Shown piece by piece: positions 30,652 to 64,000 of a stretch of DNA of 64,000 bases (within the stretch, counting starts at the first letter, position 1; each line of letters opens with the position of its first letter). The stretch is from a virus: the IMG/VR virus record IMGVR_UViG_3300045988_183453. One strand, 5' to 3'. Position numbers and translations under genes: made by a program. The notes beneath the pieces are model-generated. The model saw nothing but the letters and a program-made list of their open reading frames with translations, ran no database searches and was not told where the DNA came from.

Positions 30652-30786
30652 TGTACAAGAGAAACGGCAAGAGACATTTGTAGTGATTATAGTTGGTCGC
30701 CACGAATCGATGCCGTGTCTGCTTGCGCATAATTACCTCTTTTCGAAGCCCACAGGTCATTCTCTCACCTGTGGGTTTTGTTTATT
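30652..30786 (+). ncRNA. Candidate short RNA (~135 nt) between P1a and a strong intrinsic terminator
   Basis: Terminator hairpin cccacaggtcattctctcacctgtggg (30748-30773) plus TTTTGTTTATT. No credible ORF with an RBS. Confidence 0.4.
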
Positions 30787-30794
30787 GCGGAATC

Positions 30795-30812
30795 GTGCGA
30801 ATTGCAGACAAT
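30795..30812 (+). promoter_or_regulatory. Motif promoter P1b (GTGCGAATTGCAGACAAT)
   Basis: TTGCGG-N16-GACAAT immediately after the terminator. Confidence 0.55.
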
Positions 30813-30883
30813 TAAAGACAGAGCGATTGTGAGATGGGGCGATACCGATGCAGTAGGGATGAGAATCTTAGCAGCTAAAAGAG

Positions 30884-38413: not shown

Positions 38414-38474
38414 TATGCATGGCAGGTTCTTTTCGGAGCCTGCCTTCTTATTTCGCAAAAATAGTTGCCCATTT

Positions 38475-38493: not shown

Positions 38494-38620
38494 AGAATTG
38501 ACACCTCCCACGATTTCAATCGTGGGATTCCCGGGTGGCGGTGGCAAGGCTTATCACCATGCCGCATACAAGGCAGCGAGTTATGCGGTTCCCCACCATC
38601 CGCTACGGGTGTAGCGCACA

Positions 38621-38866
38621 ATGAGCATCCAGCCTAAAAGGGTAAAGCATAAAGCAGTCAACAAGGTAAACCTTAATCCGGGTGATTTAGTCTCTCTCAA
38701 CGGAGAAGTTCTCGTTGTGCATGGTACTCATACCAATAAAAAGGGTGCTGTAAATGTAGAATTCAAAACACCCGGAAAAAGCGGTCAAAAATCTGCAAGC
38801 CTTAAAAAACTTAAAATTGTAAAAGCAGCAGATTCCATGCATTCTGCATGGGAAAAAATATCTTAA
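38621..38866 (+). CDS. Hypothetical small basic protein
   Basis: 81 aa ORF. Confidence 0.45.
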   Translation: MSIQPKRVKHKAVNKVNLNPGDLVSLNGEVLVVHGTHTNKKGAVNVEFKTPGKSGQKSASLKKLKIVKAADSMHSAWEKIS

Positions 38867-59144: not shown

Positions 59145-59301
59145 TAATCCTAGATATTTGTATCACTCATACAAGGCCGGAAAACTACTGGATTGATTTT
59201 CAAAAGCAATAGCAATCGAGACCACTGCCCCGAAAAGGGTAGTGGTCTTATTTTTTGCACAATACTTACCATAAATTACCAGAAAGAAAAACATTGTGCA
59301 T

Positions 59302-59321
59302 CTGTGCGAATTGCATATAAT
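59302..59321 (+). promoter_or_regulatory. Motif promoter P11 (CTGTGCGAATTGCATATAAT)
   Basis: TTGTGC-N16-TATAAT. Confidence 0.6.
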
Positions 59322-59388
59322 ACAAAATATAGAACGAAAGGCATCAAAAAATATCGTTGGTCGGGCAAAATTCGACCGAAAGGCTAGG

Positions 59389-59421
59389 GCAGGCTCAGTT
59401 TTGAACCTGCTCTTTCTTTTT
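59389..59421 (+). terminator. Leader terminator before the HTH-repeat gene trio
   Basis: gcaggctcagttttgaacctgc followed by TCTTTCTTTTT. A second upstream hairpin is tcggtcgggcaaaattcgaccga. Confidence 0.5.
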
Positions 59422-59433
59422 ATCGGAGGCTTT

Positions 59434-59961
59434 ATGTCAAACAAAGAGGAACGCATGAACCGCAATAAAAGCATCATCGAAGATTACAAAAATGGAAAGC
59501 CGATTTTAGAAATCGCGAGGGAATATAATCTTTCAGAAACGATGTGCTACAAGATTCTAAAAGGTACGCAGGAGCCGCCCCGTTATTTTGAAAAAAAGAG
59601 GAAGAGACTTACCACTCGAAATGAGCAGATTGTTAAACAGTATAAAGGCGGTATGACGGCCAGAGAATTGGGCAAGATGTACGGCATTTCCATGCAGCGT
59701 ATTTATGCAATCTTGCATTCGAGCGGAGAGTACGAAAGCCAAAAATACAATCATATTGAAACGACTCTCAAAAAAGAGAAAAAGATGCGGAACCAAACTT
59801 TTCTTGATGCTTACAAGAAAAATCCTCGAAAATCGATTATCGAGTTGAGCAGGGAGGTAAATATCAGCCCTTCACTAGGTTACCTTATCCTTCATCAAAA
59901 TGGGATTTACCAGTATAACGTAAAAGCCAGAGCTAAGGAGAATAGCGAAAATGCCGATTAA
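59434..59961 (+). CDS. Tandem HTH-repeat protein (3 repeats)
   Basis: Three ~50-aa repeats of the pattern Y(K/E)xGx(S/T)xxEIAxEYxISxxxxYxIL, resolvase/sigma-region-4-like HTHs. Confidence 0.6.
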   Translation: MSNKEERMNRNKSIIEDYKNGKPILEIAREYNLSETMCYKILKGTQEPPRYFEKKRKRLTTRNEQIVKQYKGGMTARELGKMYGISMQRIYAILHSSGEYESQKYNHIETTLKKEKKMRNQTFLDAYKKNPRKSIIELSREVNISPSLGYLILHQNGIYQYNVKARAKENSENAD

Positions 59962-60469
59962 CAAGATTACCCACATGTGTCTAACTCATGACAAAGTCAG
60001 AGCACGAAATGAAAAGATGCTGGAGGATGCCAAGGACGGTATGTCCCAGGAACAGCTGGCCGAAAAGTATCAAATTTGTGTTTCTACTGTCCGATATAGT
60101 CTGAAGGACTTTTACAAAGAACAGGCCCGGCAGAGGAAAGCAAAGAAGAAAGCCTGGCAAACCCAGATGATTCATGAATATGAGATGGGCGCAAAATCTC
60201 CGGAGCTCCAGGAAAAATACGGCATCAGTGGAACGCTCTTTTATCGGATTCTTCATGCGCATGGAAAGAATGGCCGACAAATCCACAGCCAAAACCGTAT
60301 CGAGACTGGCAAGAAAAGAAACGCCGAGATGGTCAGGAAATACAAAAACGGCGTTTCTGTCAAAGAGCTTGCGGAAGAATACGGGCTCAAAAAGGGAAGC
60401 GTATATCGCGCCATGAAGCGGTATAGTCCAGGCCCAGGGAAAAGTAAAAGTTGTCAAAGCGAGGAATAA
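59951..60469 (+). CDS. Tandem HTH-repeat protein (3 repeats), paralog
   Basis: DAKDGMSQEQLAEKYQICVSTVRYSL; EYEMGAKSPELQEKYGISGTLFYRIL; KYKNGVSVKELAEEYGLKKGSVYRAM. Overlaps the upstream gene. Confidence 0.6.
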   Translation: MPINKITHMCLTHDKVRARNEKMLEDAKDGMSQEQLAEKYQICVSTVRYSLKDFYKEQARQRKAKKKAWQTQMIHEYEMGAKSPELQEKYGISGTLFYRILHAHGKNGRQIHSQNRIETGKKRNAEMVRKYKNGVSVKELAEEYGLKKGSVYRAMKRYSPGPGKSKSCQSEE

Positions 60470-60473
60470 TTGC

Positions 60474-61427
60474 ATGGCTGCATCAAAGAAAGATGTTGCG
60501 AAGCAGCAGGTCAAAGAAGACCGCGAAAAGGTTCGGGAAATGTATCTTTCTGGCAAAACTGTCAAGGAAATCGCCAAGGAAACGTATTTTTCAAGCTCTT
60601 ATTGCTATGCCATGGTGAGAGACCTAGCAAAAGAAAAGAATCTTGCAAAGAAAGCAAAAAGAGCACCTCTCGACGAAGCTATGATTCAAGATGCGAAAGC
60701 CGGGATGACGGTTGCTGAAATCGCAAAGAAGCATGGCGTGACCTATCAGCAGTGCTACTATACTGTTTCTGAATACGCTCAAGCTACGATTAAGAAGAAC
60801 AAGAAAAAGCAGTCTGCTGCCACGAAAGTTCGCAATGCGGCTATGTTGGAAGATGCGAAAGCCGGAATGACTGATAAGGAAATCGCCAAAAAATACTTTT
60901 TGTCTCGAAGCAGTGTCCGTACCGTCCTTGCAGGGCATTTACATACAAATTCCAAAAAGTTGGATGAAAGGCGCAAGGCGATTCTTGCGGATTATGAGGC
61001 AGGAACGTCCTCAAAAGACATCTGTGAAAAATACGGTATTTCAAAATCCACTCTTTACAAGGACATACGCCAAATTGGAAAAACCTGTCAGGAATACTAT
61101 CACAAGGCGCTGAAAGACAAGACCAATCAAAGGAATTCCGATATTCGAAGCAAAATCGAAAGAGGGGTCTCGGTCAGCACTATTGCCAAGGAATACGGAA
61201 TCTCTAAAACGGCGATTTATGAAACGTTTCATCAGGAAAATGTCAGAGCTGGAATTTTACAGAAACGCGGCCGTCCGCGAAAAAACACGGAACGTAATGC
61301 ACTGATTGCTAAACGCCACAGGGAAGGCGAGAAGGTGCAGGCGCTTGCCACTGAATATAATCTCTCTGTTTCGACGGTAAACACTATTTGCAGTAGAAAC
61401 AAAAATCAGAATATAACCTCATATTAA
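60474..61427 (+). CDS. Tandem HTH-repeat protein (6 repeats), paralog
   Basis: Six repeats (…DAKAGMTVAEIAKKHGVTYQQCYY…, …DYEAGTSSKDICEKYGISKSTLYKDI…, etc.). Confidence 0.65.
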   Translation: MAASKKDVAKQQVKEDREKVREMYLSGKTVKEIAKETYFSSSYCYAMVRDLAKEKNLAKKAKRAPLDEAMIQDAKAGMTVAEIAKKHGVTYQQCYYTVSEYAQATIKKNKKKQSAATKVRNAAMLEDAKAGMTDKEIAKKYFLSRSSVRTVLAGHLHTNSKKLDERRKAILADYEAGTSSKDICEKYGISKSTLYKDIRQIGKTCQEYYHKALKDKTNQRNSDIRSKIERGVSVSTIAKEYGISKTAIYETFHQENVRAGILQKRGRPRKNTERNALIAKRHREGEKVQALATEYNLSVSTVNTICSRNKNQNITSY

Positions 61428-61472: not shown

Positions 61473-62387
61473 ATGACAGACGACGTACGTAATTTAATTC
61501 GATTTGTGGTGGATGGCGATATTCGAAACGCGCAGACTCAGTGTCGAATCATGCTTGAAAAGAATGTACCCGAAAAGGACGCCAGGTTCAAAGAAAACGA
61601 ACTCAGAAAGTTGAATCTTCTGAAACCGGAACTGATTCAGCTGCCCGCCAACCTGGAAAACCTCTTGATTGCGGAGGATGCCACGAATTTCCCTGAGAGC
61701 CGGTTCCTGCTCCGCGAGGAGGAAGAAACAGTCATCAACAAGCTCTTGGCCACCAGAAAAGCAGCTTTAGCCATCAAGGAGCTTGGCATCCACTATACTT
61801 GCTCTTTGCTTTTGACGGGCCTTCCTGGTGTTGGTAAGACTGAATTGGCCCGCTACATTGCACACAAGGCGAATTTACCGTTTGTTTTCCTGAAATTTTC
61901 TGGCCTTGTCAATTCTGCTCTTGGCCGGACACAGCAGAACATCGGCAGAGTGTTCGATTACGCAAAGCGCACGCCTTGTGTTCTTTGTGTTGATGAAATT
62001 GATGCCATCGGAATGTGCCGTGGCAGCCGCGATGATGTCGCTGAAATGAGCCGCGTCACCATCGCATTGATGCAGGAACTTGACCGGCTCCCGAATGACG
62101 TCATTCTCATTGGCACTACAAACCGCGTCGATAACCTTGACGAAGCCCTCATTCGCCGATTCACTTTCAAACACCGCGTCAAGCCTTTAGGCGACGATGA
62201 TATGAAAGAACTGTGCAAGAAGTTCCTTGCTTCGGCAGACTATCCCTTCACGGAATCCGAACTCGACGAACTCTGCCATTCGCTGCGTGAACAGCGGACT
62301 GCCAGCGCCGCTGTCAATGCCTGTACAGAACGTATCGTTACACATATCGTATCGCAGCTGCCTGAAAATTCGGCAGATGCCGTGTAA
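61473..62387 (+). CDS. AAA+ family ATPase
   Basis: Walker A LLLTGLPGVGKTELA, Walker B VLCVDEIDAI, sensor-1 IGTTNR, and arginine finger region LIRRFTF. Confidence 0.8.
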   Translation: MTDDVRNLIRFVVDGDIRNAQTQCRIMLEKNVPEKDARFKENELRKLNLLKPELIQLPANLENLLIAEDATNFPESRFLLREEEETVINKLLATRKAALAIKELGIHYTCSLLLTGLPGVGKTELARYIAHKANLPFVFLKFSGLVNSALGRTQQNIGRVFDYAKRTPCVLCVDEIDAIGMCRGSRDDVAEMSRVTIALMQELDRLPNDVILIGTTNRVDNLDEALIRRFTFKHRVKPLGDDDMKELCKKFLASADYPFTESELDELCHSLREQRTASAAVNACTERIVTHIVSQLPENSADAV

Positions 62388-62427
62388 AAGTATGATAGCC
62401 TGGGAAGAAAGCCCTCGTCAGTTTAAG

Positions 62428-63090
62428 ATGTCCAAGCAACTCGATGAGGGAAAATTCGGAGAAGACTTGGCTCGCAAATTCCTTAACGACCCGATTATCA
62501 AAGTGAATCATGGCATTAGCCATTACGATGACGTGACTCAGGATAAATCATATCAAGACAAAGATACCGATTTCATTGTCTGGAAGAAGAATGGTAAGAC
62601 CTTTGGCCTGGAAGCGAAAGTGGACAGTCACAATACCGGAAATTTCTACCTGGAAACCTCGGTGGACTACTTCTCCATGGTGCCTGACGCTCTGAACGAA
62701 CAGCGGGTAGCGCGGCGGTATCGGGATGGCATCGACCCTTTATGGCACACCCCGGGCTGGGTATACAGGAGTGGTGCGGACCAGATTCTCTATTATTTCA
62801 GAACCACGCAGCTGCTTTACATTTTCTCCCGCGTTGATGTCTGGTTCTATGCTGAAAAGCTGATGCGCGGTGGAATTCATCTCGACCCCGGAATCAGAAA
62901 GCCAAAAATGTATTCTGCCGAAAATATCAGTGAACGCAATGGTTCCACTCTCTTCTTTGCCAACGGCTTATGCGTGAATGCTGAGCAGACATACAAGGCT
63001 TTAGGGGCGCAAAAAAGAGTCATTAAATACCAGGTTGAGAACCCGAATTCAGACGTCCCAACGTTCAGCTTTTGCCCTTTCAAATTATGA
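62428..63090 (+). CDS. Hypothetical protein with PD-(D/E)xK-like nuclease motif
   Basis: DKDTDFIVWKKNGKTFGLEAKVD is a D…(E)xK arrangement. The start is ambiguous (62377, 62392 or 62428), overlapping or adjacent to the AAA gene. Confidence 0.45.
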   Translation: MSKQLDEGKFGEDLARKFLNDPIIKVNHGISHYDDVTQDKSYQDKDTDFIVWKKNGKTFGLEAKVDSHNTGNFYLETSVDYFSMVPDALNEQRVARRYRDGIDPLWHTPGWVYRSGADQILYYFRTTQLLYIFSRVDVWFYAEKLMRGGIHLDPGIRKPKMYSAENISERNGSTLFFANGLCVNAEQTYKALGAQKRVIKYQVENPNSDVPTFSFCPFKL

Positions 63091-63171
63091 ATTTTCCGCT
63101 AACAATCGACAAAAAATCACATTTCAGTTCAGCGGAAGAGTATAATTGTAGTAGAAAGAGAGGAAAAAAGC

Positions 63172-63294
63172 ATGAACCAAATCAACGTTGTCACGATTGG
63201 GAAACTCATTGAAGCGCATCGTGGAGGTGACGAGCAGAAGTTCAAAACTCACGTCGATTTTATAAAAACAAGCCGGGAAAACCCACGACTTTAG
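63172..63294 (+). CDS. Possible small ORF (40 aa)
   Basis: RBS GAGAGGAAAAAAG with an upstream TATAAT. Ends inside the hairpin cccacgactttagtcgtggg. Confidence 0.25.
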   Translation: MNQINVVTIGKLIEAHRGGDEQKFKTHVDFIKTSRENPRL

Positions 63295-63373
63295 TCGTGG
63301 GATGAAAGGCGTTAAGAACGAATCAATTCACGCTGCATATCCGCAAGATGGACAGCATTTTTTTGCTGTCAAA

Positions 63374-63393
63374 GCGTGCGAATTGCGTACCAT
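63374..63393 (+). promoter_or_regulatory. Motif promoter P12 (GCGTGCGAATTGCGTACCAT) directly upstream of tnpB
   Basis: 17 of 19 identical to P5; the tnpB RBS AAAGGAGG follows. Confidence 0.55.
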
Positions 63394-63429
63394 AGATAGT
63401 AGATTCTAAAGAAAAGGAGGCTACTACTC

Positions 63430-64000
63430 ATGCGTCTGGTTGTTAAAACTTACAAGTATAAGCTGTACAACAGTAAAAAGAACAGATACCTGGTGCGCCA
63501 GATTGAACTTGCCTCCGAGATTTGGAATTTTTGCATTGCTATGCGGCGTATGTACTATTTGGTCTATGGCAAAACGCTTAAAGCCAATGATTTGAAAAAG
63601 TACATTGCTAAAATCTGCAAGCGCCGCAAGTGGGCACATTGGCATAATCTCGGCAGCCAGGCGATTCAGGATGTGGTGGAACGGGTTGACCGTGCCTATA
63701 AAGCCTATTTCGATAATAAGAAAAAGGAGCATCCAAAAAAGAAGTCCCTACCAAAATTCAAGAAGCGTGAACTGTACAAAAGTTTTACACTCAAGCAAGC
63801 AGGCTACAAGTTTGAAGGAAAAGGCCGCATTACCATCAATGGCAAAAGGTATCGGTATTTTGATTCTCGGCCATTGAAAGGTAAAGTGAAAACCTTAACC
63901 GTCAAGCGCGACAATTTGGGCGACATCTATATTTTTGCCGTCACGCAGGAAGAATACAATGAAGTCCTTCCACGAGCAGGTAAAGCTGTCGGGATGGATT
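63430..64000 (+). CDS. tnpB: TnpB (IS200/IS605 OrfB family RNA-guided nuclease-like protein), N-terminal 190 aa, truncated by the window end
   Basis: MRLVVKTYKYKLYNSKKNRYLVRQIELASEIWNFCI… matches the OrfB_IS605 N-terminal pattern (yKfrlyP.k.q…r.vyN). Also …KFKKRELYKSFTLKQ…GKVKTLTVKRDNLGDIYIFAV. The frame stays open to the window end and is not in the ORF track for that reason. Confidence 0.75.
   Translation, partial: MRLVVKTYKYKLYNSKKNRYLVRQIELASEIWNFCIAMRRMYYLVYGKTLKANDLKKYIAKICKRRKWAHWHNLGSQAIQDVVERVDRAYKAYFDNKKKEHPKKKSLPKFKKRELYKSFTLKQAGYKFEGKGRITINGKRYRYFDSRPLKGKVKTLTVKRDNLGDIYIFAVTQEEYNEVLPRAGKAVGMD

Follow-up and report, generated by a model that had tools for sequence, protein, structure and literature searches.

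A probable non-autonomous, mobile IS200/IS605-family element with a phage-type promoter in a large gut phage

Positions 63264–64000 (+ strand) of the viral DNA analysed here very probably form the left half of a mobile, non-autonomous insertion sequence (IS) of 1,399 bp. It has a phage-type promoter, and would be served by TnpA in trans and make use of RNA-guided homing. The window is the whole stretch of 64,000 nucleotides that was analysed (IMG/VR record IMGVR_UViG_3300045988_183453). It contains the left 737 bp of this tnpA-less IS200/IS605-family element, and the element ends past the edge, near position 64662 if the window numbering is continued. The transposon-adjacent motif (TAM), the activity of the promoter and the processing of the ωRNA were inferred from sequence.

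Results

The boundaries of the IS were drawn from a second copy in the related genome L002 and the empty site in contig L001. The identity of the second copy is 91.5% across some 1,400 bp, and its edges match the L001 empty site exactly. Comparison of the empty site (CTTAT-TTTTTGC) with the filled site (CTTAT-IS-TTTTTGC) showed that there is no target duplication. The tetranucleotide TTAT, which is the target and the putative TAM, lies directly 5' of the left end (63260–63263, +). It is found 5' of the IS at 13 of the 14 distinct insertion sites, and TTAC is found at the remaining one.

The original prediction had seen no typical IS200/IS605 left-end features other than a hairpin at 63278–63298. 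That hairpin is real, and its actual position is 3–4 nt away (63282–63301, +). It is the subterminal left-end (LE) hairpin, CCCACGAC-TTTA-GTCGTGGG, which is conserved in all copies. As single-stranded DNA it folds with −9.7 kcal/mol (z = −3.9), and none of 200 shuffled sequences folded equally well. It is presumed to be the structure that TnpA recognises. The right-end (RE) hairpin CCCACGATTTTAATCGTGGG (z = −5.2) is also conserved in all copies and closes the 3' region of the element (...GTGTGTCAA). Both ends carry subterminal hairpins instead of terminal inverted repeats, and insertion occurs 3' of a specific tetranucleotide without target duplication, as is characteristic of the IS200/IS605 family. 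The search for ends through other copies, which the original prediction had proposed, recovered a canonical LE and RE. This was largely the outcome that it had named as counting against itself. A megablast search of the region against GenBank phages gave no match.

The N-terminus of TnpB had been recognised correctly, with its reading frame open to the window edge. The start codon is at 63430 rather than 63431, and a ribosome-binding site conserved in the copies, AAGGAGG, was read 9 nt ahead of the ATG (63414–63420, +). The window contains codons 1–190 of 373 (63430–64000, +; Pfam OrfB_IS605 and Cas12f1-like_TNB, PF01385 and PF07282), and its last complete codon is the RuvC-I aspartate D190. 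Extension of the contig had been called for, together with a check of the RuvC residues and the zinc finger. Contig L001, whose sequence agrees with the final 10 kb of the window at 100% identity, supplied the missing sequence and gave the full TnpB of 373 aa. This protein aligns with ISDra2 TnpB (8H1J) over its full length (364 residues, E 5.5e-44). The RuvC triad D190/E274/D354 is intact and aligned with the ISDra2 catalytic positions, and the zinc finger is also intact (C325xxC328 and C344xxC347). Triad and zinc finger are kept in all nine copies examined. The dN/dS of tnpB is 0.05–0.07, with dS up to 1.3. As a separate observation, TnpB homologues are frequent in GenBank phages generally (425 records).

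The absence of a tnpA ahead of tnpB, as originally predicted, was confirmed for the whole unit. No tnpA was found between LE and RE, nor anywhere in the window. The absence within the element makes it a non-autonomous member of the IS200/IS605 family. Among its relatives, L028 (62% TnpB identity) has a tnpA directly upstream. L123, from the same phage clade, is an autonomous IS605 with the order LE, tnpA, large tnpB-like gene and RE; between its LE and that of the window element the identity is 90%. A TnpA encoded 6.6 kb downstream in L001 is not claimed as the mobiliser, because it is part of another IS, whose end hairpin is unrelated.

A search for a 3' ωRNA scaffold and guide had also been suggested, and a conserved structured region was found. 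It overlaps the 3' end of tnpB and the RE, and is conserved down to relatives of 47% identity. In this region 97% of cells are paired, compared with 34–45% in slid controls, and eight pairs show compensatory changes. A scaffold with a guide read from the flank is what defines OMEGA systems, and we regard the region as a candidate ωRNA. When the element was scanned over its whole length against Rfam (L001 11600–13500, E<=1), no family, no curated ωRNA and no group I intron was returned. The predicted 16-nt guide, TGTCAAAGCCTACGAC, is the DNA that directly follows the RE on its right. Of its 16 nt, 15 agree with the uninterrupted allele of relatives, and the 12 TAM-proximal nucleotides have no other match within the window. 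The original prediction had proposed to test whether any guide matches the promoter motif or sites on the replicon; no match to the promoter motif was found, and the guide fits the coding sequence of the interrupted gene. A second possible guide source, an RE-like sequence at 38497–38641 that abuts a promoter motif, was treated as a relic. It shares 98% identity with the RE of an L123-type IS605, and in a by-eye comparison the guide that it would provide agreed with other promoters at the TAM-distal end only.

To describe the distribution of the IS, 29 full-length copies were collected, 28 from phages and one from a metagenome-assembled genome (MAG). They have 14 distinct flanks, corresponding to 13 different phage sites and one site on the bacterial MAG contig. 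Two copies are present in L002, and two also in the contig represented by L013/L042. In sixteen viral contigs the 21-nt junction is uninterrupted and lies within an ORF of 142 aa; this is the empty site. The target used by the L002-type copy is also present in the window itself, between 59248 and 59252, and is unoccupied there. The IS is polymorphic among related phages, being present in some and absent from others. Several occupied loci and vacant sites in relatives are the mark of a mobile IS200/IS605 element. The copy on the MAG contig has the same promoter and lies among bacterial-looking genes (HipA-like, RloB-like), and the IS is therefore not strictly restricted to phages.

At the site in the window, tnpB is present in all 22 contigs that carry an identical AAA+ protein. 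The copies at this site all have one common flank, which includes a 723-bp deletion. This locus therefore reflects a single ancestral insertion that was passed on vertically, a point against reading it as a case of homing.

Two phage genes precede the insertion. The first encodes the predicted AAA+ ATPase (61473–62387, +; PHROG 3757), whose PF00004 domain covers residues 112–235 (E 4.7e-29) and includes Walker A (GLPGVGKT) and Walker B (VLCVDEID) motifs. The second encodes a 232-aa clade-restricted ORFan, p232 (62392–63090, +), which had been called PD-(D/E)xK-like. The ORF is real and is conserved in relatives, with close homologues only; the label has a motif, D60...E74-A-K76, as its sole basis. 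Members of the PD-(D/E)xK group have an alpha-beta-beta-beta-alpha-beta core bearing D...(D/E)xK. The predicted order of a helix followed by three strands, together with the motif, is compatible with this core, and the AlphaFold model, built from a 4-sequence alignment, has a pLDDT of 35 and is unusable. The protein had no Pfam match even at E<=10, none in PHROG and none in a PDB profile search. Both genes adjoin the unoccupied site at 97–99% identity in at least nine contigs. Most other insertion sites of the IS lack them, the exception being a 34%-identical p232 homologue beside the L054 copy. Thus, the proposed functional link of these two genes to TnpB did not hold. They are unrelated phage genes outside the IS.

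The gene interrupted by the IS encodes 142 aa in its uninterrupted form, which spans the exact junction in the 16 IMG/VR contigs. Its first 31 codons (MNQINVV...DFI) are left in the window (63172–63263, +). The annotated 40-aa ORF at 63172–63294 is this fragment reading on into the IS. The remainder of the gene has been deleted in the lineage of the window. The gene is small and dispensable, and belongs to a large uncultured gut phage. The IS interrupts it in the sense orientation, as would an IStron-like element, in which a group I intron and an IS605 TnpB module are spliced together out of the mRNA of the interrupted gene. We give this explanation practically no weight. The scan described above gave no match in Rfam, group I introns included, many other copies of the IS lie in intergenic DNA, and no exon is left to restore at this site because the rest of the gene was deleted.

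The original prediction suggested that this TnpB is integrated into the regulon of the surrounding DNA and is not a passenger IS. It would be a domesticated protein, either TldR-like or part of a defence or partition module, which would no longer belong to a mobile IS and could work with the AAA+ and D...ExK proteins. The phage-class promoter ahead of tnpB, the unit without tnpA and the presence of the gene in 22 of 22 contigs with the identical AAA+ protein are in line with this idea. However, the promoter lies inside the IS, LE and RE are intact, and the element occupies 14 sites 3' of TTAT or TTAC, is missing from the empty site in 16 contigs and occurs twice in one genome. The nuclease residues are all kept, and the guide has no match to the promoter motif. 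Furthermore, the AAA+ and p232 genes occur without the IS, and most copies of the IS occur without both genes. TldRs share with this protein the TnpB fold without an adjacent tnpA, but they are nuclease-dead, immobile and promoter-guided, whereas the TnpB here has all catalytic residues, functional-looking IS ends on both sides, a mobile locus and a guide to coding sequence. Neither loss of RuvC residues or C-terminal truncation, nor a promoter guide in a fixed locus, was found. A phage regulator derived from TnpB by domestication would have been notable; the evidence here points to an ordinary mobile IS, and we consider domestication very improbable.

The promoter motif noted ahead of tnpB was verified with a weight matrix, which was trained only on the 10 other copies in the window with the IS copy left out. 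The IS promoter scored 24.9 bits, compared with 16.9 bits for the best match in 50 shuffled windows. It consists of a −35 element CTGTCA, a 16-nt spacer with the motif CGTGCGAATTGC (63375–63386) and a −10 element TACCAT (63388–63393), and covers 63366–63393 (+). It is conserved in all IS copies and moves with the element. An IS-internal hairpin with a T-run, which resembles an intrinsic terminator, is placed in front of it (63332–63364, +). The stem covaries among IS variants and is followed by T6–8; in the window copy it has two mismatches and folds weakly. This layout of terminator followed by promoter matches the intergenic regions of the phage itself.

Nearly every phage contig that carries the IS has promoters of the same class in the flanking DNA, without exception in the orientation of the IS, and their density in phage DNA of the clade is 0.2–0.3 per kb. 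The conserved spacer GTGCGAA-TTGC is common to the IS promoter and the phage promoters, and is not a generic sigma-70 feature. A generic sigma-70 scan did not call the IS promoter (8/12 hexamer matches). The putative IS promoter resembles a phage-specific class, not the textbook consensus. Possible candidates for a factor that recognises the GTGCGAA spacer are the three Mor-like multi-HTH proteins encoded at 59296–61427. Since tnpB stands behind a genuine phage-class promoter, its transcription probably follows the phage schedule. The matrix scan found no promoter of the phage class in the relatives with 62–64% TnpB identity. L058, a more distant relative, has no recognisable terminator-promoter module, and its LE hairpin leads straight to the ribosome-binding site; for L060 the LE was covered by the matrix scan. 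In 47.6 kb of MAG loci, the single promoter match is the copy carried by the IS.

One possible reading, which we put forward tentatively, is that the IS lineage captured a terminator-promoter cassette from the phage clade in which it resides. The cassette would provide TnpB and ωRNA in the replication phase and insulate the IS from read-through, and the element would act as an RNA-guided gene drive on phage genomes during replication or co-infection. We regard it as rather unlikely that this is an ordinary bacterial IS that hops into phages, whose promoter likeness reflects the shared needs of the host RNA polymerase or chance shared ancestry, and not adaptation to or capture from phages. Such an origin would agree with the same-promoter copy on the MAG contig amid HipA-like and RloB-like genes, with the sigma-70-like −35 and −10 parts of the motif, and with the commonness of TnpB homologues in GenBank phages (425 records). 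A test of co-variation between the IS promoter and the variants of the resident phages also failed. The GAATGGCATA spacer of L052/L053/L055 is like that of nearby phage promoters, and was dropped as evidence because a collection scan showed this spacer to be clade-wide, including contigs with other IS variants. On the other side, the GTGCGAA-TTGC spacer is shared by IS and phage promoters although it is not generic to sigma-70, 28 of the 29 known copies come from phages with this one promoter class, and the MAG loci have no motif besides that of the IS copy. The lack of a matrix-scoring promoter in the 62–64% TnpB relatives, the L058 LE without the module and the layout copied from phage intergenic regions also argue against it.

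Discussion

A mechanism can be proposed for the mobile, non-autonomous IS. New insertions would be made by a Y1 TnpA provided in trans, for which autonomous IS605 relatives with near-identical end hairpins in the clade are candidates. During infection, the IS-borne promoter would fire alongside the genes of the phage replication region, and TnpB would load the ωRNA with its 16-nt guide. The complex would then cut uninterrupted alleles flanked by TTAT, either in genome copies that have lost the IS or in co-infecting relatives. The predicted cleavage target is TTAT-TGTCAAAGCCTACGA, and the predicted target sequence adjoining the TAM is TGTCAAAGCCTACGAA. Recombinational repair from IS-bearing copies would restore or spread the IS, which amounts to homing.

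The element resembles IS200/IS605 members of the ISDra2/ISGst2 type (Karvelis 2021, PMC8612924; Meers 2023, PMC10055086) in its subterminal hairpins and insertion without target duplication. It also resembles them in the full-length alignment to ISDra2 TnpB with its D/E/D triad and zinc finger, and in an ωRNA-like region that overlaps both the RE and the 3' end of tnpB. The TAM of ISGst2 is TTTAT and that proposed here is TTAT, and the insertion motif doubles as TAM in both (PMC10055086). Unlike them, the element here has no tnpA, its host replicon is a large lytic-looking phage, and its LE is extended by some 75 nt that comprise a terminator and a phage-class promoter, a module that L058 lacks.

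Derivatives without tnpA (IS1341-like tnpB-only, PATE-type) also have conserved ends, tnpB, no tnpA and many copies, and share a gene pool with autonomous relatives whose hairpins match, here L028 and L123. About 50 tnpA-less copies are present in G. stearothermophilus, and TAM-dependent TnpB homing and trans-mobilisation of such copies have been described (Meers et al., PMC10055086). Those derivatives radiated within a bacterial chromosome, whereas the IS here radiated across genomes of one phage clade.

TnpB-driven gene drive of an IS has been described in multicopy plasmids (PMC11870625). The phage case is alike in its multicopy replicon, its IS-plus and IS-minus alleles and its site-recording guide; the drive here is hypothetical. 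Cutting of IS-minus copies would bias inheritance, a parallel to that plasmid drive and to the homing endonucleases of T-even phages. The free-standing T-even enzymes (Seg/Mob; reviewed in PMC13565253) recognise their targets by protein, whereas recognition here would be RNA-guided. The same review mentions homing into co-infecting phages solely as something possible in theory. If the proposed mechanism is true, this IS would be a natural phage case of 'non-restorative transposon homing', which has so far been shown for plasmids only and is theoretical for phages.

Together, the copies make up a clean natural data set, in which a single IS lineage radiates through one phage clade and 13 insertion sites in phages are mapped. 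Alleles with and without the IS are known exactly, the TAM (TTAT) and the guide can be read from the sequence, and there are candidate TnpA partners in trans and a promoter that mimics those of the phage. With these, TnpB homing as a gene drive in phage populations and the adaptation of expression signals to a viral host become directly testable. The compact TnpB of 373 aa, with its predicted, defined TAM, may also be of use for tool development.

The tnpB gene belongs to a mobile IS200/IS605-type element

At least 22 metagenome contigs encode the exact AAA+ ATPase found upstream of tnpB. Among these, L001 matches the final 10 kb of the window at 100% identity and was used to extend it (window coordinate = L001 coordinate + 51472). 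Another related contig, L002, has a second tnpB unit 5.4 kb upstream of the first. The two L002 copies are 91.5% identical over ~1,400 bp, and their likeness ends abruptly on both sides. L001 holds the matching empty site (...GGTCTTAT|TTTTTGCAC...); the filled site reads ...GGTCTTAT[AAAAAC...GTGTGTCAA]TTTTTGCAC..., and target duplication is absent. The element at the window edge is 1,399 bp long and occupies 63264-64662 (window numbering), with TTAT on its 5' side (63260-63263).

The hairpin noticed in the original prediction is real. It lies in the left end (LE) at 63282-63301 (CCCACGAC-TTTA-GTCGTGGG; z = -3.9 as single-stranded DNA), and 0/200 shuffles fold equally well. The right end (RE) has its own hairpin, CCCACGATTTTAATCGTGGG (z = -5.2). 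Beyond one hairpin, typical IS200/605 left-end features had not been found originally, but these two hairpins, the sharp boundaries and the empty-site comparison define the IS. In an alignment of 18 copies, the LE has the order TnpA-type hairpin, second hairpin with T-run, promoter, AAGGAGG, ATG. The second hairpin has a stem that covaries from one IS variant to another and a T-run after it, and resembles an intrinsic terminator; in the window copy it is weakened by two mismatches.

TnpB protein search of viral contigs, together with the loci already gathered, gave 29 full-length IS copies (82-100% DNA identity). They occupy 14 distinct flanks, 13 in phage contigs and one in a gut MAG contig (L027, 10.9 kb, also carrying HipA-like and RloB-like genes). 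The site is preceded by TTAT in 13/14 cases and by TTAC in 1/14. The IS is therefore mobile. The site occupied by the second IS copy in contigs L002/L013/L042 is also present in the window, where it is empty (59248-59267, TTAT then TTTTTGCACAATACTT); the joined flanks match it at 99.3% identity across 300 bp. This target is just past a terminator and ~45 nt before the promoter of a Mor-like cluster (12-mer at 59303). In L054 the copy has entered a hairpin (ATGTTGTAC-TTAT-GTACAACAT) at its TTAT loop, and several further copies are within or just past terminator hairpins.

The IS at the window edge is inserted within a gene, and an open frame reappears when its flanks are joined. Sixteen IMG/VR contigs have the exact 21-nt junction without interruption, GTCGATTTTAT|TGTCAAAGCC, inside a 142-aa ORF starting MNQINVV. 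The apparent 40-aa ORF at 63172-63294 is the 31 initial codons of this gene, reading on into the IS.

TnpB retains its nuclease residues and a putative guide RNA

Only the N-terminal half of tnpB is in the window (63430 to the edge, 190 codons, open ORF), and the RuvC-I aspartate is its final complete codon, so the state of the RuvC residues could not be judged originally. Extension with L001 gave a full protein of 373 aa (63430-64551 in window numbering) matching Pfam OrfB_IS605 and Cas12f1-like_TNB. ISDra2 TnpB (8H1J) aligned over residues 7-370 (E 5.5e-44), and D190, E274, D354 and both CxxC pairs are kept. The protein is predicted to be nuclease-competent, and its conserved catalytic triad and CxxC pairs rule out a TldR-like, nuclease-dead TnpB. 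All nine compared copies (9/9) are intact 373-codon genes with dN/dS of 0.05-0.07 at dS up to 1.3, and the nuclease has long been under purifying selection. In conclusion, the element is a passenger IS and not a domesticated regulator; its defined ends, 14 flanks, empty sites and intact nuclease residues contradict the earlier view of a TnpB taken into the phage regulon.

Four contigs (L004, L008, L010 and L056) share the insertion site and flanks of the window IS. Inside the IS they are only 88% identical and resemble the L027/L048 variant, whereas their LE is like that of the window; in tnpB, ATG has become ATT, which shifts the start codon and gives a 369-aa protein. These copies look like products of recombination between IS variants rather than of independent insertion.

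Conservation of the 111 nt from the tnpB stop codon to the RE, and of the last coding part, extends to cyanobacterial relatives of 47% identity. A common secondary structure across this region pairs 97% of cells, versus 34-45% with partners slid, and includes 8 pairs with compensatory changes, a count reached in 1/500 shuffles. This conserved paired structure is a candidate for the 3' scaffold that had been proposed for checking, and its position and behaviour are as expected for an ωRNA. Rfam scan returned no matching family and no group I intron. The putative guide would be the 16 nt past the RE, TGTCAAAGCCTACGAC, which match the uninterrupted allele of relatives at 15/16 positions immediately after TTAT. 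A guide match to the promoter motif or to other sites on the replicon had been envisaged, but the TAM-proximal 12 nt have no other match in the window, promoter motif included.

Source of TnpA and relation to the neighbouring genes

As originally noted, no tnpA precedes tnpB; there is none within the IS or anywhere in the window. In the Clostridiales MAG locus L028, a TnpB 62% identical to ours has a Y1 tnpA directly upstream and a similar RE terminus (...GGGAGTATGTCAA), and that element is a canonical IS605. Contig L123, from the same phage clade, has an autonomous element composed of LE, tnpA, a 578-aa TnpB-like gene and RE; this element is close to the IS in its LE (90% identity) and has an almost identical RE hairpin. 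This tnpA-bearing relative and these near-matching ends point to trans-mobilisation of the IS. The window itself contains a 145-nt RE fragment of an L123-type element (38497-38641, minus strand, 98% identity; ωRNA-like scaffold and RE hairpin), so this lineage has visited this phage too. The fragment lies between a promoter at 38474 and an 81-aa ORF at 38621, forming the structured 5' leader of the ORF. An unrelated second IS200/IS605 element is present in the same phage ~6.6-7.2 kb past the window edge, at L001 19787-20915. Its Y1_Tnp TnpA (PF01797, E 3e-32) is followed by an apparently frameshifted tnpB-like ORF, and the end hairpin of the element, GCTGGAGTGAATTCCAGC, differs from that of the IS.

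The AAA+ ATPase gene (61473-62387; PF00004, E 4.7e-29) and the 232-aa ORF (62392-63090) had been suggested as possible functional partners of TnpB. Both are kept at 97-99% identity in at least 9 contigs whose site is unoccupied, and neither is found within 2.3 kb of the IS copies at most other sites. These genes are not partners of TnpB and are unrelated to the IS. The L054 copy, in a more distant phage, is an exception: just upstream of it (L054 1599-2342) lies a homologue of the 232-aa protein, with 34% identity. Since the 232-aa protein has close homologues only, no match in Pfam, PHROG or PDB profile searches and a structure model with pLDDT 35, its PD-(D/E)xK-like label is a guess at motif level. 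In P0038, a 200-aa protein from the homologue search, the first 55 residues of the 232-aa protein are fused to the gene partly deleted in the window; this suggests that, in these phages, the interval is a hotspot for recombination and deletion.

A promoter of the phage class travels with the IS

The phage carries a promoter class with -35 TTGCnn, a 16-nt spacer containing GTGCGAATTGC (GTGCGAA-TTGC) and -10 TAnAAT. About 17 such promoters, all on the + strand, lie between 24280 and 63393 and none in the terminase/structural half (1-24 kb); they head the replication and regulation half, frequently straight after a terminator. The copy before tnpB has the 12-mer CGTGCGAATTGC at 63375-63386, followed by TACCAT. 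With a weight matrix trained on 10 other window copies, leaving this site out, it scored 24.9 bits (rank 13 in the window) against a maximum of 16.9 over 50 shuffled windows, so the motif originally reported here is genuine and not a coincidence. As candidate regulators, the phage has three Mor-like multi-HTH proteins encoded in tandem at 59296-61427.

Because it has a fixed place in the conserved LE order of the 18 aligned copies, this promoter is part of the IS and moves with it, even to the MAG contig. Flanking sequences of almost all IS-bearing phage contigs also contain promoters of this class, in every case co-oriented with the IS. Phage DNA of the clade has 0.2-0.3 such promoters per kb; MAG loci totalling 47.6 kb gave a single match, the promoter inside the IS. 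Matrix scan found no promoter of this class in the 62-64% identical TnpB relatives or in the viral contigs holding them. In the LE of L058 the hairpin leads directly to the RBS, in that of L060 ~70 nt of other sequence separate the two, and in L028 tnpA occupies the place upstream of tnpB. Phage intergenic regions likewise run from terminator to promoter (e.g. 30750-30815), and on the simplest reading the IS lineage has gained an expression cassette of phage style. Because no donor locus was found for the cassette, a generic sigma-70 scan made no call at the site and a co-variation test on the promoter gave no support, we only infer its functional adaptation to the phage. The IS is otherwise a well-known kind of element, and these phage-type expression signals inside it are its modest novelty.

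Proposed action of the IS in the phage

Around the demonstrated architecture, mobility, target motif and intact nuclease residues of the IS, a mechanism can be proposed from established IS200/IS605 biology (PMC8612924; PMC10055086). TnpA supplied in trans would excise the single-stranded IS and insert it 3' of TTAT. TnpB with its ωRNA, guided by right-flank DNA, would cut uninterrupted alleles flanked by TTAT, and recombination with IS-bearing copies would restore or spread the IS. More speculatively, the IS-borne promoter may time this action to the phase with many genome copies and active recombination. TnpB gene drive has been shown in multicopy plasmids (PMC11870625), and a similar situation would arise in a replicating phage pool. 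The proposed action would also resemble homing into co-infecting phages, which a recent review raises as a theoretical possibility only (PMC13565253).

Genes for a terminase large subunit and a DNA polymerase are present in the window, and its relatives are IMG/VR viral contigs up to 389 kb; the host replicon is a large gut phage that has not been cultured. TnpB homologues are widespread among phages as a whole (425/50,697 GenBank phage records). Off the window, five tRNA genes are clustered at L001 15806-19129 (Thr-TGT, Gly-TCC, Thr-CGT, one with an odd anticodon loop, and Ser-TGA).

Relative to IS-free phages, the window lineage is without 723 bp right of the IS. The deletion begins 15 nt beyond the RE (L001 13191-13205 onward), is flanked by two TACGA microhomologies, and takes the remainder of the 142-aa gene and most of the following gene (64663 onward, off the window). 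Its break is close to the place expected for a TnpB cut, but this is a single event that permits no statistics.
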